From NCBI GenBank assembly GCA_025363675.1, contig JANYDJ010000160.1:1-58970 (forward strand): 58,970 bases of DNA, given 5' to 3'. Origin of the DNA: Flavobacteriaceae bacterium. GTDB lineage: Bacteria > Bacteroidota > Bacteroidia > UKL13-3. Every line of letters starts with the position of its first letter. Position 1 is the stretch's first letter. Position numbers and translations under genes: made by a program. The notes under the pieces were generated by a model. It did no database searches and was not told the DNA's origin. It saw nothing but the letters and a program-made list of their open reading frames with translations. Positions 10,971 through 52,329 of the stretch are shown piece by piece.

Positions 10971-10976
10971 AACTTT

Positions 10977-28567: not shown

Positions 28568-31500
28568 ATGTTCAAAAAAAATTCAACCAATGGCTATCGT
28601 TATATCGCTGCTTTCCTCTTAATTGTTGTTGGTTTTTACGCATCGGCCCAAGGCAATAAAAAATATCAAGGTTTATTATGGGAAATAAGCGGCAATGGGC
28701 TTAAGAAACCCAGTTATGTATACGGCACTATGCATGTGAGCAGCAAAGTGGCTTTCCACTTAGATGATTCTTTCTTTTTGGCTATTGAAAATTGTGATGC
28801 CGTAGCACTCGAAATTAATGCAGATAGTTTTATGGCCGACCTCATGCGGAGCGAACGTATGGAAGGCCGCGGGGGGTATGGCAAAATAGGATCGGTGGCA
28901 TCAGAAGATTTTTTGTTGTATGATAAGAAGAGCGAACTTTTGCACAAAGCCCTATCGCTCGACCAAAATGTGGTTAACTTCCTGATGTACCGTAGCAGCG
29001 GGTATCGGGATAATTTTGAAGAAGATACCTACTTAGATTTATATATATATAAGACCGCCAAAAAACTCAAGAAAATACATTTGGGAGTTGAAAATTGGGA
29101 GGAAAGTGAACGGCTAATGAATGAAGCAGCCAAAGCACGAAGCGACGAACCTTATGACCCTAAGCGTAGCCGTGCTGCCAACAAAATGGACATGGACAAA
29201 GAGCTGGTAGATGCTTACCGCAAAGGCGATTTGGATATGCTTGATTCTATTAACCATATCGAGGATCCTGAAAGCTATCTAGAAAAGGCCATATACCAAC
29301 GCAATAGAAATATGGTAGCTGCTATGGACTCTATGTACAAACTGGGCAAATCGTTGTTTGCCGCTGTGGGTGCAGCCCATTTGGCAGGCAAAAAAGGTGT
29401 GATTGAATATTTGCGTGATCGCGGATATACCGTGCGGGCAGTAAAACATGTAGAAAAAAATAGCAAGCGAAGAGAGCAGTTGGACAAATTGCACCACTCC
29501 CTTAATTTCATCCCACAAACGGCTACCGATGGTTCTTTTAAAGTGGAAGTTCCTGGAAGATTATATGAAACTGGCATGCGTGGAAAGATGCAACTATATC
29601 TCTGCACCGATTTAGTTAATGGTGTATACTTTGATATCTCCCGCGTAAAACTATATGCTCCGTTTGTGGGCAAAGACCAAGATTTTGTGATGAAACAAAT
29701 CGACAGTTTATTGTTTGAAAATATTCCCGGAAAAATTATTGAAATGAAAATTATCAAGAAAAATGGTTACCCCGGTTATGATATATTAAACCAAACAAAA
29801 AAAGGCGATTTTCAACGTTATCATATTATAGTTACTCCTGTAGAAGTGATGATTTTTAAAATGGCTGGCCCCGATGATTTTGTAAAGAACAAAGACGGCG
29901 ACCATTTTTTCAACTCTATAGAACTTAAAGAAACTCCTGCACCATTATGGCAAAAATACACTTCTAAAGAACATGGTTTTTCACTGATGCTTCCACACGT
30001 CCCCATTAATAATGAAACTAGCGATGAGTTCCGCTACACCATAGGCCGTTTGGATTATTTGGCGGTGGACAAAAACACTGAAAATGCATATATTATATTG
30101 CAACACAGTTATAGCAATTTAAGTTATTTGGAAGAAGATACTTTTGAACTGAACCAAATGATGGATGGTTTTGCACAGACCGAAAATGCGAAAGAGTTGC
30201 ATCGGGAAATCGTAAAACACAAAGATCACTACGCGGTAAAATCGCAGCTTGAAATAAACAACAGAAAAGTAGAAGCACTTGCTGTTTTAAAAGGATCGAG
30301 GTATTATATATTTGCCCAATCTATTCCCGAAGGAGGTAGTTTTGATAAACGGTTTATGGAGAGCATAGAATTTGTAAAACCCCAATTTAAACCACTTCAA
30401 GAATATAATGATACTGGCTTGCACTTTACCGTGAAAACTCCTTTTAAACCCAAAAAACCTGCTGAAAATAGTTATGCGTACTATAATTCTTATAGCGGCA
30501 AACAGGGCCCTCAGGAAAGTGAAACAAAAGTACAATTGTTTACCCCTCCTGAAAGTGAAGAAGCTATACGCGTAGAGTATTACAGGTATGGAAAATATAT
30601 AAGTGCTATTGATACGGGATACTTTAGACGATTGGTGATAAACAACATCAACGATTCCGATTTATATGTGGTGAAGAAAAGTGAAAAGCACGAAAAAGAT
30701 ATTCATACTTACGACGTGGTTTATGCAGACACAGCCACTGCACGCCGCCACAAATATAAGTTTGTACTTAAAGGTTCGGTATTATATACCGTGCAATGTA
30801 TGATAGATAGTACTGAGGGCGAAAGTGAATTTATTACCAGTTTCTATAATACTTTTAAGCCTACTGATACCACTATTGGGAGACCCTTATTTGTGAGCAA
30901 GGCCGACACCCTTATTAAAGATTTGTTCAGTAGTGATAGTGCTACAAAATCGCAAGCTGTGGAATCGATTAAGGATGTTTGGCTCACTGATAAATTATAT
31001 AACCTCTGGATGGGAGCCATAGATAGTTTTTATTTTACCAAAAATTATTTAGACCGTAAAGCCGATATGATAGAAGAGCTTGGTTATGGATGGCGTGGCC
31101 GCAAACGGGATACTATGATATTGGATTATCTGAAAAAAGAATATATAAAAGTGGGGGATACAACTACCCTGCAATTGGCCATCCTACGCAGCATGACACG
31201 CTTTATGACTCAGGAATCGTTTCGTACCATCAAAAATATATTGTTGAGTGAAGCCCCTATCCCATCAGGTAGTTATGAGCTGAAGGGTATATTTAACAAT
31301 GCAGAAGATTCTTTTAAACTAGCCCGCCTTTGGTTTCCTGACCTGGCCAAACTAAATACTATTGAAGAATATAAATCAGGTATATATGATTTGATGTCGT
31401 GGCTGGTGGATAGCAATTATTTGAAACCTGCCGATTATGCCGCTTACAAAGTACAAATATATAACGATGCCCGTATCACCCTAAAACGCCTTCAGGCAAA

Positions 31501-32176
31501 GGAAGAAGGCGGTTCTTCAAACAATTCGGAGTATGATGATGATTTGGTAAACTATACTTATTTGCTGCTGCCTTTTTATAATGAACCGCAAATAAAAAAA
31601 TTAATTGACAAACAATTCCAAAGCAAAAACAAAGAATTCAGAATGCGTATTGCAATTGCGATGATTAAAGCAAAAGTACCTGTAGCAGATTCTATCATTA
31701 TGGAGATTGCCCAAGACGATCAGTTGCGTTACAAACTATATCAGCGTTTGCTTAGGATAAAACGTTTAGATGTATTCCCCTCAAAATATAAAACACAAGA
31801 AGCTATTGCCCGTTCTATTTTTATGAAAGATGCTGTAAGCTCTTACAGTTACAGCAGTAGCAGCGAGAGCGAAGAAGACAAAAACAAAAAAGACAGTATC
31901 GTTTTATTAGATAAAAGACTAACCACTTTTAAGCACAAAGTCGGATATGTATATTATTACAAAGTATTAAAGAAAGATGACGAGCACAAAGAATGGTATG
32001 TTGGAATTAGTGGCATGCAGCCAGAAGACACCTCGAAAATTTCACTCGACGAAAAACTAACCAGCTCCAATACTGAACTGCTGGACGAATCGAAAAAACC
32101 AGCCGAACAATTTGAAGAACTATTATATGAAATGCGATTAAAACGTCGCCGTGGTCGTGCTGATTATGGATATTAA
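28568..32176 (+). CDS. TraB/GumN-family protein with about 900-aa C-terminal extension
   Basis: 1202 aa with a signal/anchor. TraB/GumN hallmarks are GLLWEISGNGLKKPSYVYGTMHV and FAAVGAAHLAGKKGVIEYLRDRGYTV within the first ~290 aa. I do not recognise the remainder. Confidence 0.85.
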   Translation: MFKKNSTNGYRYIAAFLLIVVGFYASAQGNKKYQGLLWEISGNGLKKPSYVYGTMHVSSKVAFHLDDSFFLAIENCDAVALEINADSFMADLMRSERMEGRGGYGKIGSVASEDFLLYDKKSELLHKALSLDQNVVNFLMYRSSGYRDNFEEDTYLDLYIYKTAKKLKKIHLGVENWEESERLMNEAAKARSDEPYDPKRSRAANKMDMDKELVDAYRKGDLDMLDSINHIEDPESYLEKAIYQRNRNMVAAMDSMYKLGKSLFAAVGAAHLAGKKGVIEYLRDRGYTVRAVKHVEKNSKRREQLDKLHHSLNFIPQTATDGSFKVEVPGRLYETGMRGKMQLYLCTDLVNGVYFDISRVKLYAPFVGKDQDFVMKQIDSLLFENIPGKIIEMKIIKKNGYPGYDILNQTKKGDFQRYHIIVTPVEVMIFKMAGPDDFVKNKDGDHFFNSIELKETPAPLWQKYTSKEHGFSLMLPHVPINNETSDEFRYTIGRLDYLAVDKNTENAYIILQHSYSNLSYLEEDTFELNQMMDGFAQTENAKELHREIVKHKDHYAVKSQLEINNRKVEALAVLKGSRYYIFAQSIPEGGSFDKRFMESIEFVKPQFKPLQEYNDTGLHFTVKTPFKPKKPAENSYAYYNSYSGKQGPQESETKVQLFTPPESEEAIRVEYYRYGKYISAIDTGYFRRLVINNINDSDLYVVKKSEKHEKDIHTYDVVYADTATARRHKYKFVLKGSVLYTVQCMIDSTEGESEFITSFYNTFKPTDTTIGRPLFVSKADTLIKDLFSSDSATKSQAVESIKDVWLTDKLYNLWMGAIDSFYFTKNYLDRKADMIEELGYGWRGRKRDTMILDYLKKEYIKVGDTTTLQLAILRSMTRFMTQESFRTIKNILLSEAPIPSGSYELKGIFNNAEDSFKLARLWFPDLAKLNTIEEYKSGIYDLMSWLVDSNYLKPADYAAYKVQIYNDARITLKRLQAKEEGGSSNNSEYDDDLVNYTYLLLPFYNEPQIKKLIDKQFQSKNKEFRMRIAIAMIKAKVPVADSIIMEIAQDDQLRYKLYQRLLRIKRLDVFPSKYKTQEAIARSIFMKDAVSSYSYSSSSESEEDKNKKDSIVLLDKRLTTFKHKVGYVYYYKVLKKDDEHKEWYVGISGMQPEDTSKISLDEKLTSSNTELLDESKKPAEQFEELLYEMRLKRRRGRADYGY

Positions 32177-32242
32177 AAATCCACATTAAACACTTTTAAT
32201 GTTCAGCAAATATATATAATATAGTTTTTTTAATTTTCGTAT

Positions 32243-33127
32243 ATGTCTATTCAAAACCCTCCTAATGGCCAGTACCTACAGCGTCTAATTATGTTGTGCG
32301 GGTTATTTTTTATGGGTTTATTTATATTTACTTTTTTAGCGGCTGCGGCTGCAGTAAAAATATATGCTATCCCCTGCGAAATATATAACTTATTTGAGTA
32401 TATAAAAAAACATCCGAACGAGGCACGAACCATTAATGCACTTATTTTTACGCAGGTAATGAGCCAGCTACTGGCTATGGCCATTCCTTTTTTGGTAGTG
32501 ATGCAGATTACTTATAGAGAACAGATGTATCATGAAACAGGTTTGCTAAAAATACCCAAAATAATTATTATAATACTGGTGTTGGTATTGGTTGTTGCCT
32601 CACTTTATCCGCAAAGTTATATAGAATATTTTAATGGGTTATTGTTTGAAAGCAATAAAGAACAATCCAATTTTATTACAGCAATGATAAAAGCAGATAA
32701 TAGCAATGAAATGCTTGTTAATATTGGGTTTATGGCCATACTTCCAGCTTTATGCGAGGAGTTTTTTTTTAGAGGTGGGGTATTCCTTTTGCTTAAAAAA
32801 CTAACTGGCAAACTGTGGTTTCCTGCCATTGTTTCTTCCCTGTTTTTTGCTCTCACCCACGACCAGCCCAGCCAAATGATTGTTATATTTTTAATGGGGC
32901 TGATGCTGGCATTTGTATACGAACTTACAGGCTCGCTTTGGATGAGCATATTGCTACATTTTGCAAACAACCTGTATTTTGTACTCGCTGATTATTATAA
33001 AGTAGGTTCAACTTTCGATTTCGCATCTTTATATAATATCATTTTGGTGGTTTTAAGTGCGGTAATCATTTCAGGTATATTTTGGTATTTATATAAAAAT
33101 CGTTTCACAGAAATTAATTACGAATGA
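32243..33127 (+). CDS. CPBP-family intramembrane glutamic endopeptidase (CAAX protease/Abi-like)
   Basis: 294 aa, polytopic. Motifs are EEFFFRG, FALTHD and LHFANN. It ends with TGA. Confidence 0.9.
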   Translation: MSIQNPPNGQYLQRLIMLCGLFFMGLFIFTFLAAAAAVKIYAIPCEIYNLFEYIKKHPNEARTINALIFTQVMSQLLAMAIPFLVVMQITYREQMYHETGLLKIPKIIIIILVLVLVVASLYPQSYIEYFNGLLFESNKEQSNFITAMIKADNSNEMLVNIGFMAILPALCEEFFFRGGVFLLLKKLTGKLWFPAIVSSLFFALTHDQPSQMIVIFLMGLMLAFVYELTGSLWMSILLHFANNLYFVLADYYKVGSTFDFASLYNIILVVLSAVIISGIFWYLYKNRFTEINYE

Positions 33128-33222
33128 GGATTTACTATACGCTCTTGTTCGTAATTTCTATATATCTTTGCCTTTAATCCTTTTGGAATATATAGTGTCT
33201 GAAAGAATTAATATATCAATCG

Positions 33223-36200
33223 ATGACCAATCATAAACAAGTATTCAATACCTCTTCCAAGCTGCGATGGCGTACGTTTCAATGGGTAACGCGTTTCGTT
33301 ATTTTTGGGTTTATCATGATTGTTCCCGTGGTGTGGATTGCTCTCTCAAAAGGATATAAACCCAACCTGCCAAGCCTTAAAAGTGATGACCCTGAAAAGA
33401 AAAAAGTGGCCAATCCTGCCACGCCAAAGTCATTTTCCGAAAAAGAATTTATCAAATATAAAGGCTTCAACGATTTTTTATCTGCTAAAAATGCCAATAA
33501 AAATTTAGCAGATATTGACAATAAAAAAACCGTGAAACGCAGAATAAGAGCTGGATTTTATGTGGACTGGGATCCCCAATCATTATATTCTTTACAGGCC
33601 CATATCGACCAAATGAATATGGTATTGCCCGAATGGTTTTTTATTAACCCACATGCCGATACCCTGGCTCCAAAAATAGATCCTGAAGGGCTTAAAGTAA
33701 TGAAACAGCACGGGGTGGAGATTGTACCCATTATCAACAATATCAACGATGAAAAAGGTGAGGGCGTTTTTGATGGTGCATTAATGAATCGTATTTTTCA
33801 TAACGACAAAAAACGTAAAAGACTCATTGATGATATTGTTAAATATTTAAAATTATATGGCCTGCAAGGCATCAATATCGACTTTGAGGAACTGGATGAA
33901 AACGATGACCAAACTATCATCGATTTTCAAAAAGAATTATATGCCAAACTACACCCTTTGGGATTAACGGTTACCCAAGATGTGATGGCTGGTAATGAAG
34001 ATTTTAATTTGAAAGAACTAGCTAAGTATAATGATTACTTATTTTTGATGGCTTACGACCAACACTATTCTACCAGTGTTCCCGGCCCGGTATGCGAACA
34101 AAAATGGATAGAAAAAGTAACAGACCAAGCTGCCGCAAAAGTTCCTTCCGAAAAAATTATACTGTGTATTGCAGGCTATGGATACGATTGGCCAGATGGG
34201 ACAGAAGCTACTACAGTTAGCTACCAACAAGCTATATCAAATGCGGAAATATATAAAGCAAAAATAAAATTTGACGACAACACTTATAATAGCTCCTATG
34301 AATATACAGATGAAAATAAAAAACATCACAAAGTATATTTAGTAGATGCTCTTTGCAATTATAATACTTTGCGTTTTGCCGATGAATATGGAACCGCCGG
34401 AACTGCCATGTGGAGATTGGGCTCGGAGGATGACAGGTTATGGTCGTTTTATCAAAGAAATTTAGATAACAACGATTTAATTGTAGCCCCGTTCGATTAT
34501 AAATTGTTAAATGTTTTTACATCACGAACCCAAAAACCAAACTATGTGGGCGATGGAGAAATATTAGATGTGGTTACCAAACCACAAATAGGAAAAGTAA
34601 CTATAGAAGTAGACAGTGTAGAACAAATGATAACGGAACAACTGTATGAACAGTTCCCCACCAGCTATGTTATCCGCAAGTTTGGCAATGTAAAGAAAGA
34701 AGTGATACTCACCTTCGATGATGGCCCTGATGAGAAATATACAACAGAAATTTTAGATATATTAAAACGAGAAAAAGTGCCTGCCACTTTTTTTATTGTG
34801 GGGGTAAATGCTGAAAGCAATTTGGATGTATTAAAAAGAATATATGATGAGGGCCACGAAATAGGCAATCACACTTTCACCCATCCCAACATTGCCCATA
34901 TAAGCCTAGAAAGAGCGTATACTGAAATGGAGGCCACCCGCTTGCTGATAGAGGCTGCTATTGGGCACAGTACCATTTTGTTTCGTGCACCTTTTAATGC
35001 CGATGCCGAACCCACACGCCCCGAGGAACTTTTGCCCGTGGCCCTTAGTCGTGAAAACAACTATTATACTATTGGGGAAAGTATTGATCCACAAGATTGG
35101 AGAGTAGATGCTTCTGCTGATTCTATATATGAAAAAACAATACAACAATACGAAGAAAACCCTGCCAAAGGTATTATATTGTTGCACGATGCTGGCGGAA
35201 ACAGACAAGCGACAGTTGATGCACTGCCTCGTATTATACAATATTTTAAAAAGAAAGGCATTAAATTTACCACCGTTGCCGCCCTGCTTCACAAAAGTAA
35301 AAATGAAGTGATGCCAGTAGTAAAAGGTGGTCTGCAGGGCATTGGTAGTGGCGTTGCAAATTTTATATTTTGGTTTGAAAACTTACTGTTCGCTGCTTTC
35401 TGGGTGGCCATTACTTTAGGTATTATCAAAATTTTATTAATGGCCATATTGGCTATTATACAATATATAAAACGAAGGAAAAATATATATATACTCAATG
35501 AACCCTTCACTTCAAAAGTGAGTATTATTGTGCCAGCATATAATGAAGAGGTAAATGCCGTTAGAACTATACACAATCTGCTGTTGCAAGACTACCCCAA
35601 TTTCGATATTATTTTTGTGGACGATGGCTCCACCGATCAAACATATCATATTATAAAAAATACGTTTGATACCCATCCTCAAATAAAAGTATATACAAAA
35701 ATAAATGGCGGAAAAGCGTCAGCCCTCAATTTTGGTATCGCACAAACGGATTCGGAATATGTAATATGTATTGATGCAGACACCCATTTGCAATTCAATG
35801 CTATTAGTTGTATGATGCCCTATTTTGCTGACCACAACACGGGTGCCGTGGCTGGGAATGTGAAAGTAGGCAATGAAAGAAACATGCTTACCCGTTGGCA
35901 ATCGATAGAATATATAACAGCACAAAACTTTGACCGCAGAGCGTTTGATATACTAAATTGTATTACTGTAGTACCCGGAGCAATTGGTGCTTTCCGCAAA
36001 ACTGCTATTGAAGTTGCGGGCGGATTTACCACTGATACTTTGGCAGAGGATTGCGATTTAACGATACGGATTTTACGCAATAATTATCGTATACATAATT
36101 GCCCCAGTGCCATCGCTGTAACCGAGGCACCCGAAACTTTGAAACAATTTATGAAACAACGCTTTCGTTGGTGCTATGGTATTATGCAAAGTTTTTGGAA

Positions 36201-36600
36201 GAATAGAGATGCCTGTTTTAATCCGCAATTTAAAAAATTGGGATTGGTGGCCTTACCCAATATACTGGTATACCAAATATTGCTGCCCATGCTTGCTCCG
36301 CTTGCTGATTTGATGTTGGTATTTAGTTTATTCTGGAACCAAAACAACCCCGAAAGTGTAGAACATATATTGTTTTATTATATACTTTTTTTAGGTGCTG
36401 ACCTATTGGTTTCAGTTATTTCATTCCTTTTTGAAAAAGAAAAAATGTACAAACTTATATGGATTATACCCCAAAGATTAGTGTATCGACAATTAATGTA
36501 TATTATACTGTTTCGTTCTATTAAGAGAGCCATAAAAGGTGAAACCCAACAGTGGGGCGTACTGAAGAGAACCGGAAATGTAAAAACAATTAACAAATAA
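33223..36600 (+). CDS. Tri-domain membrane protein: GH18-like hydrolase + CE4 polysaccharide deacetylase + processive family-2 glycosyltransferase
   Basis: 1125 aa with an N-terminal TM. The GH18-like region carries GINIDFEE. The CE4 region carries LTFDDGPDE, GNHTFTHP, RAPFN and LLHDAGG. A TM block follows. The GT2 region carries IIVPAYNEE, FVDDGSTD, CIDADT, LAEDCDL and QRFRWCYG. C-terminal TM helices complete the protein. Confidence 0.9.
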   Translation: MTNHKQVFNTSSKLRWRTFQWVTRFVIFGFIMIVPVVWIALSKGYKPNLPSLKSDDPEKKKVANPATPKSFSEKEFIKYKGFNDFLSAKNANKNLADIDNKKTVKRRIRAGFYVDWDPQSLYSLQAHIDQMNMVLPEWFFINPHADTLAPKIDPEGLKVMKQHGVEIVPIINNINDEKGEGVFDGALMNRIFHNDKKRKRLIDDIVKYLKLYGLQGINIDFEELDENDDQTIIDFQKELYAKLHPLGLTVTQDVMAGNEDFNLKELAKYNDYLFLMAYDQHYSTSVPGPVCEQKWIEKVTDQAAAKVPSEKIILCIAGYGYDWPDGTEATTVSYQQAISNAEIYKAKIKFDDNTYNSSYEYTDENKKHHKVYLVDALCNYNTLRFADEYGTAGTAMWRLGSEDDRLWSFYQRNLDNNDLIVAPFDYKLLNVFTSRTQKPNYVGDGEILDVVTKPQIGKVTIEVDSVEQMITEQLYEQFPTSYVIRKFGNVKKEVILTFDDGPDEKYTTEILDILKREKVPATFFIVGVNAESNLDVLKRIYDEGHEIGNHTFTHPNIAHISLERAYTEMEATRLLIEAAIGHSTILFRAPFNADAEPTRPEELLPVALSRENNYYTIGESIDPQDWRVDASADSIYEKTIQQYEENPAKGIILLHDAGGNRQATVDALPRIIQYFKKKGIKFTTVAALLHKSKNEVMPVVKGGLQGIGSGVANFIFWFENLLFAAFWVAITLGIIKILLMAILAIIQYIKRRKNIYILNEPFTSKVSIIVPAYNEEVNAVRTIHNLLLQDYPNFDIIFVDDGSTDQTYHIIKNTFDTHPQIKVYTKINGGKASALNFGIAQTDSEYVICIDADTHLQFNAISCMMPYFADHNTGAVAGNVKVGNERNMLTRWQSIEYITAQNFDRRAFDILNCITVVPGAIGAFRKTAIEVAGGFTTDTLAEDCDLTIRILRNNYRIHNCPSAIAVTEAPETLKQFMKQRFRWCYGIMQSFWKNRDACFNPQFKKLGLVALPNILVYQILLPMLAPLADLMLVFSLFWNQNNPESVEHILFYYILFLGADLLVSVISFLFEKEKMYKLIWIIPQRLVYRQLMYIILFRSIKRAIKGETQQWGVLKRTGNVKTINK

Positions 36601-36615
36601 AAAACCCAATACTAA

Positions 36616-37497
36616 GTGAAACGTTTGCTCATTATATTATACATGCTATTTGCCGCAAGCACAAGCATACTGGCCCAACAAGATACCGCAGAAGAAGTAG
36701 AATTCGATGAAGATTTGCAGGACTCCCTAAACAGTGCAAAAGAAGACAGGCCGCACTTAATTTGGGATATCAATTATCTTTCAGATATTGTATACAATGG
36801 CCGTAGGCTAGACTCTTTGCCACAATGGGGAATTAATTTATCTCTTAAGTATCAAATGAAACATGGGTTTAATATCATGTACGATGGTGCTATATGGAGC
36901 GATGCTGTGAAACCCTATTCACTCACAAATTTTGGAATAGAAAAAGTATTTACTGTTAGCGATAATTTTGAAATTTCTACATCTTTTAACCGCTTTTTTT
37001 ATACCAATGGAACCAATGCGGAAAAAAACTATTTCAACAAAAGTGTAGACGCCTCGGCGGGATATTCACTGGGCAATTTTTATTTAGGATGGTACAGTTC
37101 TTTTATGTGGGGCACCGCCAAAACTTTTTATCACAGTCCGTCCATCGCCTGGACTTATGAAAAATGGCTGGGAAATAAAAACCATGTGAAATGGAAACTG
37201 GTGCCAGAGCTCAATGCAAGCTATGGTAGAGGCGATGCCGCAGCTCGTGCAATTAATATAAAAACTACCAAAGCTAAAGCAGCAAAAAAGAAACCCAATG
37301 GGAAACCAGCACTAAGCAAAGATGCGGTATATGTAGGGGTATTATGTTATACGGTTAATCTGGAAAACGACTTTATATATAATGATCATACTTTTTCACT
37401 TTTATTATCCGCCAATAAACCTATAGGCCCCTCAACAAATGGCAAGTGGTTATATTATTTTGGACTGGAGTGGAAAAAGAATATATATTTTAAATAA
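36616..37497 (+). CDS. Putative outer-membrane beta-barrel protein (hypothetical)
   Basis: 293 aa with a GTG start 15 bp after the synthase stop. It has signal peptide MKRLLIILYMLFAASTSILAQ, alternating aromatic/Gly strands and a C-terminal ...LEWKKNIYFK. Confidence 0.7.
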   Translation: MKRLLIILYMLFAASTSILAQQDTAEEVEFDEDLQDSLNSAKEDRPHLIWDINYLSDIVYNGRRLDSLPQWGINLSLKYQMKHGFNIMYDGAIWSDAVKPYSLTNFGIEKVFTVSDNFEISTSFNRFFYTNGTNAEKNYFNKSVDASAGYSLGNFYLGWYSSFMWGTAKTFYHSPSIAWTYEKWLGNKNHVKWKLVPELNASYGRGDAAARAINIKTTKAKAAKKKPNGKPALSKDAVYVGVLCYTVNLENDFIYNDHTFSLLLSANKPIGPSTNGKWLYYFGLEWKKNIYFK

Positions 37498-37609
37498 CAC
37501 GTGTTTTGAGGCAACTAAATGGCCTGATGTTGTGTCATATTTTTAGGGAAGTAAAATAAAATTTGAGAAATCACGTTTTACTGTTACTAATCCAAATTTT
37601 AATTAATTT

Positions 37610-39664
37610 ATGTGGTACAAAAAAATACTTTTTGTGGGGATGTCGCTTTGTTTCAACCTCTCCCAATCTCAAATGGTTTCCAACAAATTTCGAGTAAACT
37701 TTAAGGTTGACGAATATATAATTGACGATGATGATAAGCGAACGTTAGACGAATTAGTTGGCGAAGTAACGTTGGAAAAATATTGTGAAATGACGCTATC
37801 AGCTCATACCGACAATGATGCTGATGATAACTATAATATTAACCTATCCATGCGAAGAGCAAAATCGGTATATGATTATTTGGTGTCGAAAGGTGTGAAT
37901 GAAAAAGTAATGGATATTGGTTGGTATGGTGAACGCAAGCCAGAAGTAGCGAATATTACAGAAGAAGCCAAAGCAGCCAATAGACGAGTAGATATAGAAG
38001 TAAGGAAATATAAATTTACAACAACAGACGAACTGTTAAAAGAAACAGGAGGGAATTATACACAAATATTTAAGTTGAAAGGAGCGTCAGAAAGCATAGT
38101 TACAGGTATGGAGGGAACAAAAATTACTATTCCACAGGACGCATTTGAAACTAAGGACGGGAAAGCAATTTCTAATGATAAGGTTGAGATTAAACTAGAA
38201 GAATATCAGAAACCCATGGACGCTATTTTTAATAATTTGTCTACGATGTGCGACGGGAAAATTTTAGAAAGTGGTGGCATGTTTCGAGTAACAGCAAATT
38301 ATAATGGCGAACCACTAAAAGTTAGAAAGGGCAAAACATTACCTGTAGAAATGCCATCAAAGAACATGAAAAAAGATATGCAACTGTTTTATGGCAATGC
38401 TAACGAAAACAAAATAATTACCTGGAAGAATGCTAATATTCCGTTTTCGCAAAAGAAACTAACTAAAGTACAATTACCTTCAGTTAAATTGAAAGAAGAT
38501 TATTTACGAACCCTAGTTCAAGAAGTTAATATAGTAAAGGGTATTAAATTTCAAATGTCTAATCAAGTTCCAAATATTTCTCAAGTTCCACGTATTCCTC
38601 GAAAACCAAAAAAATATACAGAGGTTACAGCATCTGATATCTTAACAAATTTCCAACAAAAACTATATCCTAAAATTTTAGAGGAAAAAATAATAGCAAA
38701 AGAAAACAAAAGAAGAAAAGATATCTATGAAAAAAGAATGGAGAGGTATGAACGAAAAATGAGAGCCTATTTTATGGCATTGGAAAAATATAGAAATGAT
38801 AGCACTTCATATGAGGCCGCAATGGAAAGTACTCGTAATTGGATAAGTGCTGAAATAAATAAAAACGAAATTTTTATAGAGGAAATAGATAGAAGACTAT
38901 TCAATCAATCTTTACAAGGGCTTTTGGCTGCAAATAAAAATAATAAATTAAATATGTCTAATCCCGAACGCTATCTATTTAATCAAAAAATAAACCTAGG
39001 AGTTCAGGGTAAGATTCAATATTATAAATCACGAGTTTCAATCTTGAATTGGATGATGATGTTAACCAATGAAGAGTTATGTAAATTATCATTGAGAAAT
39101 GAAATTAACTATGATTGGGAAAGAGTTCGCGTCGCATATGAAAAATTTAGAATGGGCATAAGATTTAATAAAGTGGATGAATATCATACCAATCGTTTTT
39201 CTAAGAAATTATTACTCACAGATTCCTTGCTTAAAAAAGTTTTTGCCGACTATTATTTAGTGTATAATGCTAATGCTAAAAAATCTGGAATAAAAGACGA
39301 ACCCGAAGCTAAAAATATATATAATACTTTTTTGTCGGATATTGGATACATAAATTGTGATAGATTTGCAAGTGTCCCTCCTACATCAATGTTCACCATT
39401 CAATTGAAGGCTTCCAAAACAGCAAGAACTTATTGTTATATAAAGGAAATGAACAGTATGATATATCCAGTAATTGATAGCAATGATGTTTCTAATTTTA
39501 GATTACCCAAAGGAACAAAAGTTGAATTAATAGTTGTAGATTGGATGGATAAAATGCCAATATTTGAAATGATTCAGCACAATGTAGTTAAACAAGAAAT
39601 GATAGAAAGTAATGCAAAACCAGTTTCTTTAAAGGAAATTCAATATCTATTGGCATTGTTGTAG
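37610..39664 (+). CDS. OmpA-domain protein with N-terminal peptidoglycan-binding domain and long unknown C-terminal region
   Basis: 684 aa. An OmpA-like motif (LSAHTDNDADDNYNINLSMRRAKSV...NRRVDIEV) lies directly after the signal peptide. The middle contains a K/E/R-rich helical stretch. Confidence 0.85.
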   Translation: MWYKKILFVGMSLCFNLSQSQMVSNKFRVNFKVDEYIIDDDDKRTLDELVGEVTLEKYCEMTLSAHTDNDADDNYNINLSMRRAKSVYDYLVSKGVNEKVMDIGWYGERKPEVANITEEAKAANRRVDIEVRKYKFTTTDELLKETGGNYTQIFKLKGASESIVTGMEGTKITIPQDAFETKDGKAISNDKVEIKLEEYQKPMDAIFNNLSTMCDGKILESGGMFRVTANYNGEPLKVRKGKTLPVEMPSKNMKKDMQLFYGNANENKIITWKNANIPFSQKKLTKVQLPSVKLKEDYLRTLVQEVNIVKGIKFQMSNQVPNISQVPRIPRKPKKYTEVTASDILTNFQQKLYPKILEEKIIAKENKRRKDIYEKRMERYERKMRAYFMALEKYRNDSTSYEAAMESTRNWISAEINKNEIFIEEIDRRLFNQSLQGLLAANKNNKLNMSNPERYLFNQKINLGVQGKIQYYKSRVSILNWMMMLTNEELCKLSLRNEINYDWERVRVAYEKFRMGIRFNKVDEYHTNRFSKKLLLTDSLLKKVFADYYLVYNANAKKSGIKDEPEAKNIYNTFLSDIGYINCDRFASVPPTSMFTIQLKASKTARTYCYIKEMNSMIYPVIDSNDVSNFRLPKGTKVELIVVDWMDKMPIFEMIQHNVVKQEMIESNAKPVSLKEIQYLLALL

Positions 39665-39666
39665 TA

Positions 39667-40236
39667 TTACATTCCCAATCTCCGCCCCATTATCCCCGCA
39701 ACCTTTTCATACAACTGCAAAGGCGTCATTGTTCGCCAACCAAGCGTATCTAGTTCCCCGCCAAAGTTTATATAATAGTCGATATTGGCCTGCTGGAATT
39801 CTTGTAATACATGTTCTCTAAAATTGATGGCAACCACCCACCCATTTTCTACTTCCTGAAACCATTCTTCATAATAGCAATCGTCGCTGCTGTGGAAGTT
39901 CAATACATTCTCTCCAATTAATATATATTTATCAATGCCCGCGTCCATCAGTGTTTCTATCACTTCGCGTTTTAGCCACATAATATCATTGTTCACGGCA
40001 TCATTCCATTCTCCAATAAATTCTATCACCGCAAAGCCAGTATCATAATCTGCCATCAGCAATTTCATATATAAAGTGCTCGAACCAAACTCGTCCCACT
40101 GCGGATGAATTACATAATTGTATATTTTATTATGATACTCAAACTCACTATGCTCCCGCCCATAAAACGGCGACTGTGCATCGCTCTCGCTCTGGTAGTA
40201 TTGTCGCCAGTTATAGTAGGGTTCAAGGTCGTGCAT
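39667..40236 (-). CDS. Hypothetical cytoplasmic protein (189 aa)
   Basis: Clean ATG ORF, acidic and aromatic-rich, with no motif I can name. Confidence 0.7.
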   Translation of the reverse strand: MHDLEPYYNWRQYYQSESDAQSPFYGREHSEFEYHNKIYNYVIHPQWDEFGSSTLYMKLLMADYDTGFAVIEFIGEWNDAVNNDIMWLKREVIETLMDAGIDKYILIGENVLNFHSSDDCYYEEWFQEVENGWVVAINFREHVLQEFQQANIDYYINFGGELDTLGWRTMTPLQLYEKVAGIMGRRLGM

Positions 40237-40248
40237 GGTGCAAAGATA

Positions 40249-40450
40249 GGGGACGGGGTTCGGGATTCAGGGTCTGATGTGTCAATGCTGGATTGTTTCG
40301 ACTTATTCAAATAAGAAAAGAATAACGAACAAGGATTACCGTTTGCCGCAGCGAATTGATTTTAGAAGTATAATACTTCGTTTGTTTATCACACTCTAGC
40401 GGCAGCAAATTTGGCGAAAGCAACCCCGATTCCCGAATCCTGAATCCCCA
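40249..40450. repeat. Inverted G-rich/C-rich arms with 7-nt periodicity flanking a 144-bp spacer in a divergent intergenic region
   Basis: The left arm is GGGGACG GGGTTCG GGATTCA GGGTCTG (40249-40276). The right arm is CAACCCC GATTCCC GAATCCT GAATCCC CA (40421-40450). Confidence 0.7.
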
Positions 40451-40959: not shown

Positions 40960-43900
40960 TTATCTGCTGATAGAAATTTTGATAGGTTTTCCCAACTGCG
41001 GGGCCTGCATTATATATATTCCACTTGGCAGCAATGATACATCAATTTGTGATGAGCCATAGTGGTTCATTTGATATACCGTTCTACCCGATAAGTCTGT
41101 AATCGTTACCAAGGCTGCTGCACTAGTGGGCATGGTGAGTGTAAGCATATTACTTGCGGGCTGTGGAAAGACAGTGATTGGTTTTTGTTCATTAAAATTA
41201 ATATAACAAATAGTACTATATATTTCCTCATTGTAATTGTGGGCTTTTATCCGATAATACAATCCATTTTGTTGTAATAGTTCGCTGCTCAATATATAAT
41301 TATAGTTGTATTTATTTGTATATTTTAATGCGTGTATAACAGCCTGCTGTTCGATAGGGCTAAAATGAGAACCATCGGACGATTGTTCCACTATAAATTC
41401 ATGTTCGTCGGCACTCAATACACATTCCCAATTTAAAAATATTTCTTTGTTAACTTTCCTTCCCGATATACTTAACCATTCCACTGGCAGTGCTTCAAAG
41501 TTCGCATCGCCACTATCGCTGGCCGCAAAAACTGAAAAGCTATTAAAAGGCCCTGCGGCAATATAGTTTCTAATAGAATCGCATGTTCCTGTATTTTTTT
41601 GAAGTACCCAAGGTGCTGTTGGGCTATCATTTTTCTTGGCCATCAGCAACCTTCTCTCGCTATTATATTTTACTGACCCTATAAGTGCTGAATCGTAATA
41701 CAGTTTAATATTATAAGTAAAGCCACTTCCACCTGTGGGTAATAATTGCCAAAAACAATTCATATATTTTGCATTGGGCCGTGTACCATTTTGGGTATTG
41801 TTGGGCGGTGTAACGCCTGTATAATATTTCACATCTACTGATGAAGGCACAGTGCCGGTGCCGCCCCACGACAGGGTGGCAATAGTATCGTCGCCCCATA
41901 TATAAGTGGTGGTGGTGTTAAGTGCGGGGCTTCCATTAGCAGTAGCAGTGGGTGGCGTAGCAGTGGGTGTAAACTCATCCGACCCGATATCGGTGCCATA
42001 GCCATAAATTATGCCTCTTGCATCGCCTGTAAAATCACTATTTATATTTCCGCTTGCACTTCCTGCAATGCCTTTTCCATTAACAAACCAACAATGTGTG
42101 CTACTTACTTTAATAGATAAAATTCCACTGGTTGCATTCGTAAACAGGCTGTCAACAGGCACGTTGGCAGAGGAGGTAGCCCATGAGTTAAGGTCTAAAT
42201 AGGTGGAAGTTATATAACTACTGAATGTGGTATAATTGATGGCATTATATAGAAATTTATTGGTTCCACTATATACGAAAAAATTATGATCACTGTTTAA
42301 TAGGTTGGTACTTGCTCCGTGGTATATCGATAAACCATTGCCCCTGCTATAATAAAATAAATTGTTCTTTACCGTCACACCGTTTCCATATCCATTATCA
42401 CGATAACAAAAATCTACATTAGTTCCCCCCGCTCTGGTACCAGCAATTACAACTGAATTATAATATATCACTGAAGTGCCCGGGCTGGTGTTTATATCAT
42501 AAATACCACCAAGCTGGCTATATCCTCCGCTTGCAGCACTGTTGTCTAAATATATTTGGTTATTATAGGTTTCTTTGGTTCCCGAAGTTTGAAGCACCAT
42601 GGCCGTAGCTTCTGCTCCCGTAGTAGCGGTTACCGCATTGCTTATATCATAGATTCTGTTTTTAATTATTTTTGATGTGCCACCTGTATTAGATAGATAA
42701 ACACCACATACCCGCAATTGGTTGGTACCCGTTGCAGTTCCGCGAATAGCATATATCGTATTCCCATTTATAAGTTGGTTATGATTGGGAGCACTCACAT
42801 TCATTGCTGTGAGATTATATTGTATACCATTATAGGTGGTGGGAGATGAAATATCATGAATTATATTATTATATATACTATCATTGGAACTGCCATTGTG
42901 CGTTGCAGACACATTTGCAAGAGCTTTAAAATAGGGATTGGCCGTGCTGCTGGTAGAGGGTACTAAAATATTAGCGATAGTATTAGAAGAGATACTAATA
43001 TTTTGATTTACTACGGAACTATAATTTATTGCTACAAATTGTGAAGTGGTGGACGAACTGCTTCCCCCAACCGTAATACTATTGGCGGTAGTTGCATGAC
43101 CAATTGTATTGCCATTACCTAAAGAATTACCAATGATATGTTTGCCAGCGGCAGCATTAATTCCTATAAAAATGGGTGTGGCACCTGCACCATTCATATT
43201 TATATTTTGTATAGTATTGTTATATGTATAACAATAATTGTTGGTATCAATTCCACTATTATAATAAATACCATAAAAATTTGCAGAAGTATTAGAAAGG
43301 GTTAACGCTGAGCCACCGCATGAAGCAGCACCGCCGCCAATATAATTTCCACTTATTACAAAACTATCTGCATCATCTAACTGTATACCATATAGGGTAG
43401 CACCAACTAGGGTAGCGGTATCATATATACTATTTCCGCTTATTACATTTCCTGTAGTGGTGCCACTATAATATATACCTGCTGTGGTCCAATTAAAAAT
43501 TTCGTTGTTTGCAAGGTTTACATAACTGGCACCTCGTTGTAAAAATCCATAACTGGGAAAATTGGTGGTTCCACCTGTTGGACTCCTCATTTGGTTCGAT
43601 GATATATATACCCTGTTTGTGCCGCTAACATCGGCATATACTATTGCATTGTTGGCCTGTGTGGTATTGCATTCTATTATACAGTTTCTAAGTGTATCAG
43701 CAGTGGCACCATTGGTGAACATAATGGTAGCATGAGCCGAAGAAGCCGTGGAATGGGTGTTTCTAAATTTTAATTTCTTATTTCCGCCATCAATAATTAC
43801 CCGATCGGCACCATCTATTCTAATCATTTTATTAGCCAGATTTGCACTGTTTGCAATGGTTCTTAAAGTACCATCACTCTGAATAGTTAAGGTATAAGTA

Positions 43901-46900
43901 TTGTTCCCATCATCTATGAATTGGTTAATCGCATTGGTTCCATCTTCCGATAAATCACTTATAACAGTAGCTGTTACATTTCCACTCACCGCATTGTTAT
44001 TTACAAAATTGAAAAAGCCACTTGCCCCAGTTAACGTAGTATAAGTTTGACCCGTGCCTATATTATAATTTCCGCTAATGCCCGATACAATTTTATATGC
44101 AGTGTATTTACTGGGTGCCGTGGTTTGCGATGTTGGATTGCTATGGCTGGCACCGTAGAACGAGCTGTACCATACATTGCCACTAATACTATCCATGGCT
44201 ACTATATAATATGCAAACGAATCGCCCACTGCAGGTGTGATACTATTGCCTGCATAATCGATAGTAAAATTATATATTGCATTATTCGCATTTCCGCTCA
44301 CAAAAGTCCCCACTTTGCTAAACCAACTACTTGTTGATGGATAAGACCTACGCCACCATATACGCGGGGCATTGCCGCCTGGGTTCATTACAATTCCATT
44401 GCCTTGGTCGGTAATGGCAACAGCAAGCGTTCTGTTGGATGTAAGGCTGGTAGAAACAAAATTGGTGAACGAAAAATTAGGAACATATATATCATCGCTG
44501 GTGCCAAAACTATAAGTACCCGCATCTGCTCCAATATCGGTGGGTGTATTAGCACTTAATAACTCTTCTTCAAAATCCACAGTAGATATGCCCAATGCCA
44601 CGCCCATCGCCTCGGCCGAGGTGGTGCTTTGGATATGCATATCCACACAACAAGATCCATTATCAGGCGAAACCAAATCAGGATCGCCAACACCACTGTG
44701 CAAGTCATTAATAATAGGTGTGGTGTTATTATACATCACTTCTCTAAATGCTTTAATAGTAGTATATGCATTGGTCGAGGCCATAAATAATTGCCCACCA
44801 CTTGCCACACTGCTGCTATAATATATATTATAATCGCTGGTGAGCCCCGTTGGGTTGGTACCACTAATTCTGCACACCGTGTGCACACCGCTGCCTCCCA
44901 AACCATTGGAGCGGCTATTTACAAAGATATTGTTTTTTACAGCACGGGTATTAACGGTAACAGAGCTAATAAATGCATAAGTAACTGCACTGCTTGATAC
45001 ACTTACACTACCCCCTACCCACACAGTATGGTGATAGAAATTATTGGTGCCGGCACTTTCATTAATACCATATAATATACAATTTAATCCCACATCGAGA
45101 CCCGATGGTAATTTTCCCATTTGAACAACATTATAATAATAATTAGTAGTACCGCCTGCTGCACTGATACCTGTGACAGTGGCGGTGGTGCTTGTTGACA
45201 CAATAGAAAAAGAATATATATTGTTTTTAGCCACCGCACACCCTGTTGCAGTATTAAAATTACAATAAATGCCCGCAACACTTATTGCCTGGCTTGGTGC
45301 ACTCTCGTATAAATCGTGTATGGCATTTCCCGAGATAGTATCATTATTACCTGTATTGATTGCGGAAATACCAATAAGAGCTGCTAATGCACCAGTACCT
45401 GTTGACCGTGAAGAGCAATAAAAAGTTTCTACTATATTATTTTTTACAGAATAAGACCCGCTCCCCGAAATTAAAATACCTGTAAGGATATTACTGATAC
45501 CCGTATTGCTGTTAGTAATTCCATACATATAATTATTATAAATAGTATGTTGCCCCGAAGCAGAATTGGTAGCATGTATTCCATAAGTAGCATTGTTTGC
45601 AGCACTATTGATAGCATTGCTTAAAGTGGCCCCTCCAAAAATATTGTCTGACACGGTCATTACACCACTGCTTCCTTGCAGCCACACACCTTTCAAAATC
45701 CCGGTGCTGCTTGTGAGAGAAATTCCGCTGATTGTATTATATTGAATGGTTGAATTTCCCAAAGTAGTTCCTGTACTAAATGCAATAGCAGAAAATACTG
45801 CTGAGACATTGCTCAAACTCATACTCAAACTATTTGTAGTATAGTATTCTCCTATATTATTTCCTGTAGTGGTGCCCACATCAAAAGCCCCCGCCACCAG
45901 CGACATAGCTGACTGGGTAGTGGAAGCCGAACTTGAGGTAAATGATATATTTTTAATTACATTGCCTTGAATGCTCGTGTTGGTTCCCGTAGCAACAGAC
46001 AATCTAAAACCCCTAAGCACCCCCGAACCAGTATAGGTGCAAGCAGAACCACCGCAAGAAGCACTGGTGCCTCCCACATAATTATTACTTATTATAAAAC
46101 CATTCCCACTGGCACTGCCATTAATCCTAATAGACGATACTTCATTGCTGGCACCCGAGAGACTTCTGGAAGATGTTTGATAAAAACTATTGCCGTTAAA
46201 TGTCCAGGTAGAAGCCGAGCCATTTGTATATAAATATATTCCCGCTTGATCGGAACCTGCTGAAAAATAATCGAATATTTCTGAATTAACGATACTCACA
46301 TAGTCAGTAGTAGTAGTGCTGTTCACTGCAGTAATACAGCACACAGGAAGATTGCTACCTGAGGGTCCAATTTTACAAGAACTAATATAACAATAGTCAT
46401 TGCCAGTGGAGCCACTCCCTTGATCGAAAGTTACCACACCGGTACCGGCGGTATTGGTACACGATCCTTTTATAGTGGTATTGCGAATGGTATCATAAGT
46501 AGCATCGTTGCTAAAAGTAAAAGCAGTAGCCGAAGTGCCCGTACTGGGGTTGTCGATTGTGAGCTTATTGCCTCCGGTATTAAGTCCATCTATTACTACT
46601 TTGTCGCCTCCATTTATTTGTATAAGTGGGGCGTTCAAACTACTTGCGGTTATACTTCTTGCACTGCCACCGCTTGGACTAATAGTTAAACGAGTCCACA
46701 TTCCTGCTGCTCCAGTAATAGAAATGGTGGCCGCCTCGGTGGTATTTCCTGTTACTGAGATGGAGATATTATTGCCGCTTTGGCTGTTGGTATTCACACA
46801 ATCACAAGCTGCTTTAAGTGTGGTGTAAGTAGTATTGCAACTGCTGGAGCCGCTAACCGATATCTGTGCTTGCACTGCAAAAGCAGTATGAAATACTATG

Positions 46901-51700: not shown

Positions 51701-52329
51701 TGTGGGTAAAAGAGAAGTTCAATAAAAAGTTACTAGTAGAGGGAAATGATGACCAACATGTAGTATGGGCATTATGTTTAAAATTTAATATTCCTGAAAC
51801 ATTTGATGTGTTGGAATGTGGGAGCGATAATCAACTTATTCAAGAAATTTCAATAAGATTTAAGCAATCGGAGGTTAATACGGTAGGAATTATTATTGAT
51901 GCTGATACAGATATAAGTAATCGATGGAACTCATTAAAGCAATTGCTAACTACGCTGGGATTTCCTGCACCAAATAATTTATCCAAGGAAGGATTAATAT
52001 TAAAAGATGGAAACAATAAAACTATAGGAGTTTGGATTATGCCAAACAATAATTTGAATGGAATGCTTGAGGATTTCATTTCATTTCTTGTACCAAATGA
52101 TGATCAACTTTTACCAATTGTAAATACAACACTCGATAGTATAGAAGAAAGAGGATTGAATAAATATTTAACTATACATAGATCAAAAGCTGCTATCCAT
52201 TCTTGGCTTGCATGGCAAGAAGACCCAGGCACTCCAATGGGATTAGGTATAACAAAACGGTATCTTACAACTGATCAAGAAACGTGTTCACATTTGATAG
52301 AATGGCTTAAGAAACTATTCAGCGAATAA
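51700..52329 (+). CDS. Small TOPRIM-like protein, partner of the upstream ATPase
   Basis: 209 aa. Its ATG overlaps the upstream TAA by 1 nt (TAATG). LLVEGNDDQHVV supplies a conserved Glu and GIIIDADTD supplies DxD about 53 residues later, which is the TOPRIM pattern. Confidence 0.75.
   Translation: MWVKEKFNKKLLVEGNDDQHVVWALCLKFNIPETFDVLECGSDNQLIQEISIRFKQSEVNTVGIIIDADTDISNRWNSLKQLLTTLGFPAPNNLSKEGLILKDGNNKTIGVWIMPNNNLNGMLEDFISFLVPNDDQLLPIVNTTLDSIEERGLNKYLTIHRSKAAIHSWLAWQEDPGTPMGLGITKRYLTTDQETCSHLIEWLKKLFSE

Follow-up and report, generated by a model that had tools for sequence, protein, structure and literature searches.

The locus

The subject of this paper is a pair of adjacent genes from Flavobacteriaceae bacterium, located on a DNA stretch of 58,970 nucleotides (GenBank assembly GCA_025363675.1, contig JANYDJ010000160.1, positions 1 to 58,970), which is referred to here as the window. 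The upstream gene, an open reading frame (ORF) with an ATG start at positions 33223..36600 of the forward strand, encodes a 1125-aa protein in which Pfam and NCBIfam models recognize a GH18 glycoside hydrolase, a CE4 deacetylase and a GT2 glycosyltransferase. The downstream gene, a GTG-start ORF at 36616..37497 on the same strand, encodes a 293-aa protein with a signal peptide and a predicted β-barrel, and the two are separated by an intergenic spacer of 15 bp (36601..36615, forward strand). An earlier sequence-only reading had given exactly the same coordinates for both genes. It had described one ORF containing, in order, a transmembrane helix, GH18, CE4, a hydrophobic block and GT2, followed 15 bp downstream by a signal-peptide protein of β-barrel-like composition. 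Every motif that it quoted was found, and the downstream protein was confirmed by its coordinates and its sequence. Domain assignment with hidden Markov models (HMMs), which it had proposed as a check, recovered PF00704, PF01522 and the GT2 models above the Pfam thresholds, with Chitin_synth_2 marginal. The domain identities, catalytic residues, topology, barrel fold and gene pairing described below were established by computation. In our interpretation, which we regard as fairly probable, the pair forms a two-gene synthase-dependent exopolysaccharide module, in which a fused synthase/deacetylase/hydrolase and an outer-membrane barrel would act together by a four-step mechanism.

Domain architecture of the fusion protein

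The GH18 domain spans residues ~109-400 (33547..34422, forward strand) and is assigned to a YdhD/SleL-like subfamily by PF00704 and by matches to solved structures. The Pfam match to PF00704 covered residues 191-400 and profile positions 83-315, with 66.4 bits against a gathering cutoff of 29.6, and in phmmer alignments with 3cz8 and 4s3k it reached back to residue ~133. Signature residues were found in RAGFYVDW (109-116), a β-1-like strand, in GINIDFEE (216-223) and in LMAYD (275-279). Among solved structures, HMMER matched the domain to 3cz8 (E=1e-25), 5jh8 (E=1e-24) and 4s3k (E=2e-19), and D220-F-E222 was aligned onto the D-x-E of YdhD (3cz8, GVTIDFEQ), 5jh8 (GINVDFEA), 4wiw and YaaH/SleL (4s3k). 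The two upstream Asp positions of the DxxDxDxE motif are Gln and Asn in the fusion protein, as they are in 5jh8 and YdhD, which places its GH18 in that subfamily. The motif G[IVL]x[IVLF]D[FWY]E was kept in 121/121 homologues. As judged from these alignments, the domain is complete and retains its catalytic acid, on whose presence the sequence-only reading had made its interpretation depend, and it is no degenerate binding module. The structural relatives YdhD, SleL/YaaH (3cz8, 4s3k, 4s3j) and 5jh8 share the aligned G-[IV]-x-[IV]-D-F-E, and the fusion protein has LMAYD and the full barrel besides. It differs from YdhD and SleL/YaaH in that Pfam finds no LysM or other carbohydrate-binding module anywhere in it, and in that its GH18 is tethered to the membrane and joined to CE4 and GT2.

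The CE4/NodB-type deacetylase domain lies at residues ~491-692 (34693..35298, forward strand), where PF01522 scored 117 bits over residues 491-592. All five CE4 motifs occur in canonical order, namely TFDD (497-500), HTFTH (550-554), RAPF (588-591), DPQDW (622-626) and LLHD (653-656), and are kept in 119-121/121 homologues. They provide the Asp-His-His metal triad, the catalytic Asp base and the His acid typical of CE4 enzymes. The sequence-only reading had quoted the wider strings TFDDGP (497-502) and GNHTFTHP (548-555), and the fourth motif, DPQDW, was absent from its list. In PgaB and IcaB the order of the CE4 motifs is rearranged. The best NCBIfam and PDB matches were of the PgdA, PdaB and NodB types, and the nearest solved structures were PgdA-type peptidoglycan N-acetylglucosamine (GlcNAc) deacetylases (5o6y, E=7e-34; 4l1g, E=1e-32). 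Homology of CE4 or GH18 to E. coli PgaB was rejected on BLASTP alignments: CE4 aligned with PgaB over 53 residues only (E=5e-4), and the alignment of the PgaB GH153 hydrolase domain with the fusion protein was non-significant (20% identity, E=0.049).

The affinities of both domains bear on a different function, in which GH18 and CE4 would remodel peptidoglycan locally, either opening or marking a path through the sacculus for the GT2 polymer or modifying the wall independently of it. We consider this quite improbable. The best CE4 structures are peptidoglycan-active (PgdA 5o6y, 4l1g and 2c1g; PdaA) and the best GH18 structures are YdhD (3cz8) and the cortex-lytic SleL/YaaH (4s3j and 4s3k), but YdhD and SleL carry LysM or peptidoglycan-binding modules, whereas the fusion protein has none. 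The architecture also occurs in spore-forming Bacillus beside a ger operon. Its strict three-domain covalent linkage across phyla is, however, most simply explained by a common substrate, following general knowledge of fusion-based prediction, and the PgdA-like CE4 of Streptomyces MatB was interpreted as a deacetylase of poly-N-acetylglucosamine (PNAG) (PMC5972031).

The GT2 catalytic domain is PgaC/IcaA-like and spans residues ~765-985 (35515..36177, forward strand; PF00535, 116 bits; PF13641, 98 bits). Three Pfam models, PF00535, PF13641 and PF13632, overlap within residues 766-1035 above their gathering scores. The motifs VDDGS (799-803, with DDGS at 800-803), DAD (851-853), AED (941-943) and QRFRW (979-983) are conserved in 119-121/121 homologues, and this motif set, together with the transmembrane blocks on both sides of the domain, is that of a processive, synthase-type GT2. 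The top NCBIfam model was TIGR03937 (PgaC_IcaA), with 202.4 bits and E=1e-59; the NodC model gave 88 bits (E=7e-25) and CelA E=2e-18. The domain is 29% identical to E. coli PgaC across 365 aligned residues (E=9e-42), and the ED and QxxRW motifs of the two proteins coincide in the alignment. Altogether, eleven motifs of catalytic or signature type were scored in the fusion protein, and each was kept in 110-121/121 full-length homologues, which marks them as functional signatures and excludes chance strings.

The same domains can be read as machinery for a β-1,4-linked, chitin-like polymer that is converted to a chitosan-like product, with a NodC/chitin-synthase-like GT2, a chitin-deacetylating CE4 and a GH18 that is a true chitinase and trims the chain. 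This is a rather unlikely alternative, on which the GT2 domain bears in both directions: its score falls far under the PgaC/IcaA equivalog cutoff and Chitin_synth_2 marginally passes its Pfam threshold (29.5 bits vs 27), but the domain is much nearer to PgaC/IcaA than to NodC or to chitin synthases. The periplasmic domains argue for it. The GH18 machinery is intact and its nearest solved relatives (YdhD, SleL/YaaH and a 'probable chitinase') act on β-1,4 GlcNAc glycans. CE4 has the canonical motif order, finds its nearest relatives among PgdA, NodB and the chitin deacetylases, and has almost no similarity to PgaB. MatB argues against it, since this protein, with a PgdA-like CE4 and a PgaC-like GT2, makes PNAG and no calcofluor-stainable β-1,4 glycan (PMC5972031).

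Membrane topology

The fusion protein begins with a predicted N-in signal-anchor helix, TM1, at residues 25-43 (33295..33351, forward strand; Kyte-Doolittle score 2.27). Among 117 homologues, the mean number of Lys and Arg residues was 3.92 in the 15 residues before this helix and 1.85 after it, and the positive-inside rule was obeyed by 93% of them. A hydrophobic block recognized by hydropathy lies between CE4 and GT2 at residues 712-746 (35356..35460, forward strand) and is followed by QYIKRRKN. Here the corresponding means were 1.19 before and 3.80 after the block, and 96% of the homologues obeyed the rule. The block is most likely one membrane-spanning helix, possibly with an additional interfacial segment. 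On the basis of hydropathy and the positive-inside statistics, GH18 and CE4 are predicted to be periplasmic and GT2 cytoplasmic, with the N-terminus inside the cell, which is the arrangement that the sequence-only reading had named as a requirement. UDP-sugars are available in the cytoplasm, the side on which GT2 is placed.

The C-terminal part of the protein consists of a membrane region and a basic cytoplasmic tail (36238..36600, forward strand), with hydrophobic blocks at residues 1006-1037 and 1049-1067. This membrane region aligns with the C-terminal transmembrane region of PgaC and is presumed to be the translocation channel. The last 45 residues contain on average 8.5 Lys and Arg residues across homologues, and the tail motif WGVLKRTG (1111-1118) is kept in 110/121 of them.

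Comparison with MatB and PgaABCD

The closest characterized counterpart is MatB of Streptomyces, which acts with MatA and in which an extracellular PgdA/NodB-like CE4 is connected by a single transmembrane helix to a PgaC-like GT2 inside the cell (PMC5972031). MatB was found to be required for PNAG production, as detected with antibody F598 and by sensitivity to dispersin B (PMC5972031). Compared by its published description, MatB matches the fusion protein in the order and topology of CE4, one transmembrane helix and GT2, and the CE4 domains of both are closest to the PgdA/NodB types and away from PgaB/IcaB. MatB as described has no GH18, belongs to a monoderm host and has no outer-membrane component, whereas the window protein adds an N-terminal signal-anchor and GH18 and has a barrel partner.

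The same set of activities is found in E. coli PgaABCD, where a processive GT2, periplasmic de-N-acetylation and glycoside hydrolysis, and export through the outer-membrane barrel of PgaA are combined. These functions reside in separate proteins there, whereas those of the inner-membrane side are fused into one inner-membrane protein in the window. PgaB unites the deacetylase with a GH153 hydrolase that trims de-N-acetylated PNAG in the periplasm (PMC5933820); the hydrolase of the window protein is a GH18. The genes next to the fusion gene also differ: they encode the barrel, a CPBP protease and a protein resembling OmpA, and no PgaD or IcaD model of NCBIfam or Pfam matches any of them.

The predicted downstream outer-membrane barrel

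The 293-aa partner protein has a signal-peptide-like N-terminus (MKRLLIILYMLFAASTSILA/QQ), in a family whose cleavage site ends in A-Q, and its sequence is β-rich. Neither the partner nor its family members matched any Pfam model, and the partner had no match in NCBIfam. A word-indexed search with the partner returned three close relatives only, but when 1.84 billion cluster representatives were searched exhaustively with HMMER, a small, divergent family of 37 representatives emerged at E<=1e-3, mostly with identities of 21-34% and lengths of 280-320 aa. An AlphaFold2 model built on a 33-sequence family alignment reached a mean predicted local distance difference test score (pLDDT) of 87.8 and a predicted template modelling score of 0.79; with four close sequences the pLDDT was 58.6, so the outcome depends strongly on alignment depth. 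The model consists of a helix at residues 32-43 with a conserved DSL motif, 12 long antiparallel strands between residues 47 and 291, and a disordered Lys-rich loop at 206-239.

Foldseek found 185 matches to this model in the PDB at E<=1e-3, and the top 50 were all outer-membrane barrels. The matches included FapF (12 strands, helix-plugged), LpxR, OmpG, NanC/KdgM/GalP and the PgaA barrel 4y25. The hydrophobicity of the partner's strands alternates, with the observed value reached by 20/2000 shuffles, and in the family-averaged profile all twelve strands alternate. The prediction of a 12-stranded outer-membrane barrel is well supported by the model and its matches, and the membrane barrel that the sequence-only reading had anticipated was thereby corroborated. 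Only D36, G62, Q70, G84 and P269 are invariant or near-invariant in the family, and its alignment contains no conserved His/Ser/Asp constellation. The modelling and the searches indicate a general outer-membrane barrel fold, yet a distinct and unannotated family. The partner model, a 12-stranded antiparallel barrel after a short helix, has its best structural matches in FapF and the 12-stranded NanC/KdgM/GalP channels (Foldseek E 4e-7 to 5e-5). They differ from it in sequence, with no HMM match, and in genomic context, the partner standing beside a polysaccharide synthase and the known channels belonging to an amyloid or a sugar-uptake system.

The exporters of the Pga, Bcs, Alg and Pel systems are large barrels of 16-18 strands linked to tetratricopeptide repeats (TPR). 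An exporter of the PgaA, BcsC, PelB or AlgE-AlgK type was ruled out for the partner by its 12 strands, by the lack of a TPR domain, for which the ~25 residues between signal peptide and barrel leave no room, and by the absence of any match to the PgaA or other exporter HMMs. Its structural resemblance to PgaA 4y25 is of a generic kind, with a template modelling score (TM-score) of 0.41. DUF4421 was tried as a divergent barrel relative and rejected (hhalign probability 1.2%). Four members of the barrel family (P0134, P0142, P0154 and P0157; for example at L010 7001-8320) are longer, with 430-476 aa; in these, an N-terminal extension of low complexity, which may be helical, places ~150 residues between signal peptide and DSL motif. 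Such an extension could project into the periplasm toward the synthase.

Pairing of the barrel and fusion genes

The 15-bp gap suggests that the fusion and partner genes are co-transcribed. Promoter and terminator scans of 32100-40400 gave no more sites than shuffled sequence, and the spacer contains no terminator-like site. The partner lies directly downstream of the GH18-CE4-GT2 gene in the window and in its close relatives L005, L012 and L013, and likewise in L006, L007 (on the same contig as L014), L010/L011 and L015. The fusion proteins of these loci are 47-93% identical to that of the window. The order is inverted in L020, L021 and L022, where the partner lies directly upstream of the fusion gene, with an 11-nt gene overlap in L020. 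Family members down to ~25% identity thus adjoin a fusion gene in nine lineages, three of them with inverted order, and there is one exception. The persistence of this adjacency through inversion of the gene order is strong comparative evidence that the partner and the fusion protein are functionally coupled. In L015 (6001-6683, a Chitinophagaceae metagenome-assembled genome, MAG), the partner was matched as two tblastn segments in different frames, which reflects either a frameshift in a pseudogene or a faulty assembly.

Two observations weigh against a barrel dedicated to the synthase. The exception is family member P0130 in L009, where no fusion gene was seen within 8.5 kb. Furthermore, the barrel is absent at 6/6 fusion loci sampled outside the partner-bearing lineages (Flavobacterium reichenbachii, Agriterribacter, Paraflavitalea, Bacillus, Sphingomonas and Prevotella), which means that it is not generally required. 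A scan of species-representative genomes, seeded with a 7-sequence subset of the barrel alignment, found the barrel at 4 loci only, in uncultured Chitinophagaceae, Sphingobacteriales or unclassified 'Bacteroidetes' MAGs. The barrel is a lineage-restricted accessory of a widespread synthase, and the sequence-only proposal of a dedicated porin is supported by the nine lineages with adjacent genes, but not by the fusion loci sampled elsewhere.

These data also bear on whether the barrel is a pore at all. It might be tied to the synthase as an anchor or receptor that retains a cationic polymer, or as an LpxR-like outer-membrane enzyme in an envelope-charge programme; either role seems to us rather improbable. 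An enzymatic role would be in line with the appearance of the 12-stranded lipid A deacylase LpxR near the head of the list of structural matches, but the family lacks a conserved His/Ser/Asp constellation, and the best Foldseek matches are secretion or sugar channels (FapF, OmpG, NanC, KdgM and GalP). The N-terminal helix before the 12-stranded barrel resembles that of the gated FapF channel, while the long Lys-rich disordered loop at residues 206-239 would suit a role outside transport. Most of the fusion-bearing genomes sampled have no barrel, so that export need not depend on it, and the envelope-charge genes MprF and VirJ lie beside other fusion loci. On the other hand, tight adjacency independent of gene order, including the 11-nt overlap, fits a stoichiometric component of a machine.

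Distribution and previous descriptions

A protein search with the fusion sequence returned 2670 matches at E<=1e-10, of which the best 120 were examined. Each of these has a query coverage of at least 98%, an identity of 61-90% and the GH18, CE4 and GT2 Pfam domains; their sources include Flavobacterium, Agriterribacter, Ferruginibacter, Paraflavitalea, Pollutibacter and many metagenomes, and they are annotated in generic terms ('polysaccharide deacetylase family protein', 'glycosyltransferase', 'PNAG synthase'). When annotated plasmids and secondary replicons were searched with tblastn, one-piece matches with 89-99% query coverage appeared in several phyla: Prevotella nigrescens (44.5% identity), Bacillus mycoides / B. 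nitratireducens (38%), Novosphingobium, Sphingomonas and Sphingobium (35-37%), Deinococcus (35%) and Sulfitobacter (33%). Sequence comparison therefore indicates that the three-domain architecture is old, cross-phylum and very common, and it also occurs in monoderm bacteria, which have no outer membrane; the phylogenetic survey that the sequence-only reading had advised thus found the fusion widespread across phyla. On the conjugative plasmid pBM02-1 of Bacillus nitratireducens, a member of the B. cereus group (L017 6971-14595), a full-length fusion gene adjoins a gerA-type spore germination operon. The GH18 subfamily of the fusion protein also holds spore-cortex hydrolases.

The architecture has been recorded before. 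The string 'GH18-CE4-GT2' was tabulated for entry ZP_09465738 in the 2012 genome paper on Acetivibrio cellulolyticus, a relative of Clostridium, where the entry stands uncharacterized (PMC3413522), and this string is identical to that of the window protein. An operon survey listed Gram-negative fusions of a glycosyltransferase and a deacetylase without pgaA or pgaD, for which PNAG production is described there as unconfirmed (Bundalovic-Torma et al., 2020; PMC7112194), and these clades show a fusion of the same kind as the window protein. The two sources differ from the present description in that their entries for these proteins are at catalogue level and give no role for GH18, no topology and no barrel partner. 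The sequence-only reading had held the fused architecture to be experimentally uncharacterized; this stands for the three-domain form, but its CE4-GT2 core has been characterized as MatB (PMC5972031). The three-domain fusion is a widespread, catalogued and experimentally unstudied family with a two-domain core known from MatB. The novelty lies in the family to which the barrel belongs and in its conserved association with the synthase, both of which appear to be undescribed, and not in the fusion itself, which was already catalogued.

Proposed mechanism

The mechanism that we favour for the two-gene module has four steps. The cytoplasmic PgaC-like GT2 would polymerize UDP-GlcNAc into a β-linked GlcNAc homopolymer, most likely with the β-1,6 linkage of PNAG, and thread it through its own transmembrane helices. 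As the chain emerges, the tethered periplasmic CE4 would partly de-N-acetylate it. The tethered GH18 would then cleave it at residues that are still acetylated and thereby control chain length or release; catalysis by GH18 enzymes requires an N-acetyl group on the residue beside the cleavage site, and for this reason cleavage would be confined to such residues. Finally, the 293-aa, 12-stranded barrel would carry the processed polymer over the outer membrane. From the domains and their relatives we infer the sugar and its linkage, the substrates on which CE4 and GH18 act and the part that the barrel plays in export.

Several points weigh against this mechanism. With regard to the polymer, the 202.4 bits of GT2 fall below the TIGR03937 equivalog cutoff of 422.3, and no PgaD, PilZ or other cyclic di-GMP module was detected with Pfam and NCBIfam. 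GH18 enzymes cut β-1,4 GlcNAc linkages, and we know of none that cuts β-1,6 PNAG; the nearest relatives of CE4 act on peptidoglycan or chitin. The linkage is therefore under tension, with the PgaC-like GT2 and the MatB precedent favouring β-1,6 and the affinities of GH18 and CE4 favouring β-1,4. With regard to translocation, hydropathy predicts ~four clear transmembrane segments and solved processive synthases have more; given this small number, oligomerization or extra partners may be needed. With regard to export, the TM-scores of the partner to known channels are 0.4-0.5 at ~10% identity, and an enzyme, LpxR, is among the best matches. In the full-text literature, no experimental study of any GH18-CE4-GT2 protein was found, the catalogue entry being the only record.

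A further proposal, which is tentative and somewhat doubtful, is that the barrel founds a hitherto undescribed family of minimal outer-membrane exporters, with 12 strands and no TPR domain, whose dedicated partner is a GlcNAc-polymer synthase/deacetylase/hydrolase made as one polypeptide. If this is true, two adjacent genes would constitute a complete trans-envelope exopolysaccharide secretion system, the most compact synthase-dependent one known in a diderm.

Genomic surroundings

The wider window is an ordinary chromosomal core, with lpxD, lpxC-fabZ, lpxA, secA and a prolyl oligopeptidase gene and with uniform GC content, and a scan of the whole window found no Rfam family. Upstream of the fusion gene lie a very large 1202-aa protein of the TraB/PrgY/GumN family (28568-32176, forward strand) and, immediately 5' of the fusion, a CPBP/Rce1-like intramembrane protease (32243-33127, forward strand); both were considered as components of the module and rejected, being kept only in the close relatives L005, L012 and L013. 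Downstream, a 684-aa protein encoded at 37610-39664 (forward strand) begins with a signal-peptide-like segment, which precedes an unusually N-terminal OmpA-type peptidoglycan-binding domain (residues 31-125) and ~550 Lys/Glu-rich residues without a family match. This gene was considered as a third component and rejected, since neither the close relative L013 nor any of the distant loci has it downstream of the partner.

Two further features of the window lie apart from the module. At 40960-46935 on the reverse strand, a 1991-aa ORF is Ser/Thr/Asn/Gly-rich and highly repetitive and has a signal-peptide-like start; judged by eye, its C-terminal part looks similar to a sorting domain of type IX secretion. 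Just 3' of secA, at 50552-52329 on the forward strand, a gene for a 382-aa AAA_15/AAA_21 ATPase overlaps the gene that follows it, which encodes a DUF3226 protein (209 aa); together they have the look of a small defence-type module of two genes.

At fusion loci elsewhere, other genes recur. MprF, a lysyl-phosphatidylglycerol synthase/flippase, and VirJ/AcvB, a lysyl-phosphatidylglycerol hydrolase, lie within a few kb of the fusion genes at three loci (L006 9980-13227; L015 ~9184-12419; L018 5777-6529 and 12956-15550). These belong to two Bacteroidota MAGs and to Sphingomonas parapaucimobilis and hence are cross-phylum, which hints at a shared envelope-charge programme of a cationic lipid plus a cationic polymer. 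A gene for a DUF1003 membrane protein stands directly 5' of the fusion in L003 (7265-7984), L006 (3792-4514) and L015 (~1802-2489), a CHASE3 hybrid histidine kinase lies 5' of it in L006 (548-2755) and L007 (1112-3310), and a HAMP kinase and a response regulator flank it in Sphingomonas L018. The DUF1003, CHASE3 and HAMP-kinase/response-regulator genes are possible accessory or regulatory partners at those loci and are absent from the window. Genes for a Gfo/Idh/MocA oxidoreductase, DUF4421 and DUF2252 also recur near fusions in different lineages (L019 12619-14779, L006 13227-14204, L003 11531-12631, L004 11930-13129 and L020 2726-3943), with DUF4421 near the L006 and Prevotella fusions. None of MprF, VirJ, DUF1003, the CHASE3 kinase and Gfo/Idh/MocA was found within the window.

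Significance

In the synthase-dependent systems that have been studied (Pga, Bcs, Alg and Pel), at least four proteins share the work of synthesis, periplasmic modification and export across the outer membrane. Here a single polypeptide unites the steps at the inner membrane with those in the periplasm, and this polypeptide is very common among Bacteroidota of soil and water and is present in several other phyla. Characterization of the pair would show which polymer these abundant environmental bacteria make, and would test whether PNAG can be processed by a GH18 or whether the matrix polymers that bacteria produce include chitin- or chitosan-like ones. It would also give a minimal two-component model for the passage of a polysaccharide over both membranes.

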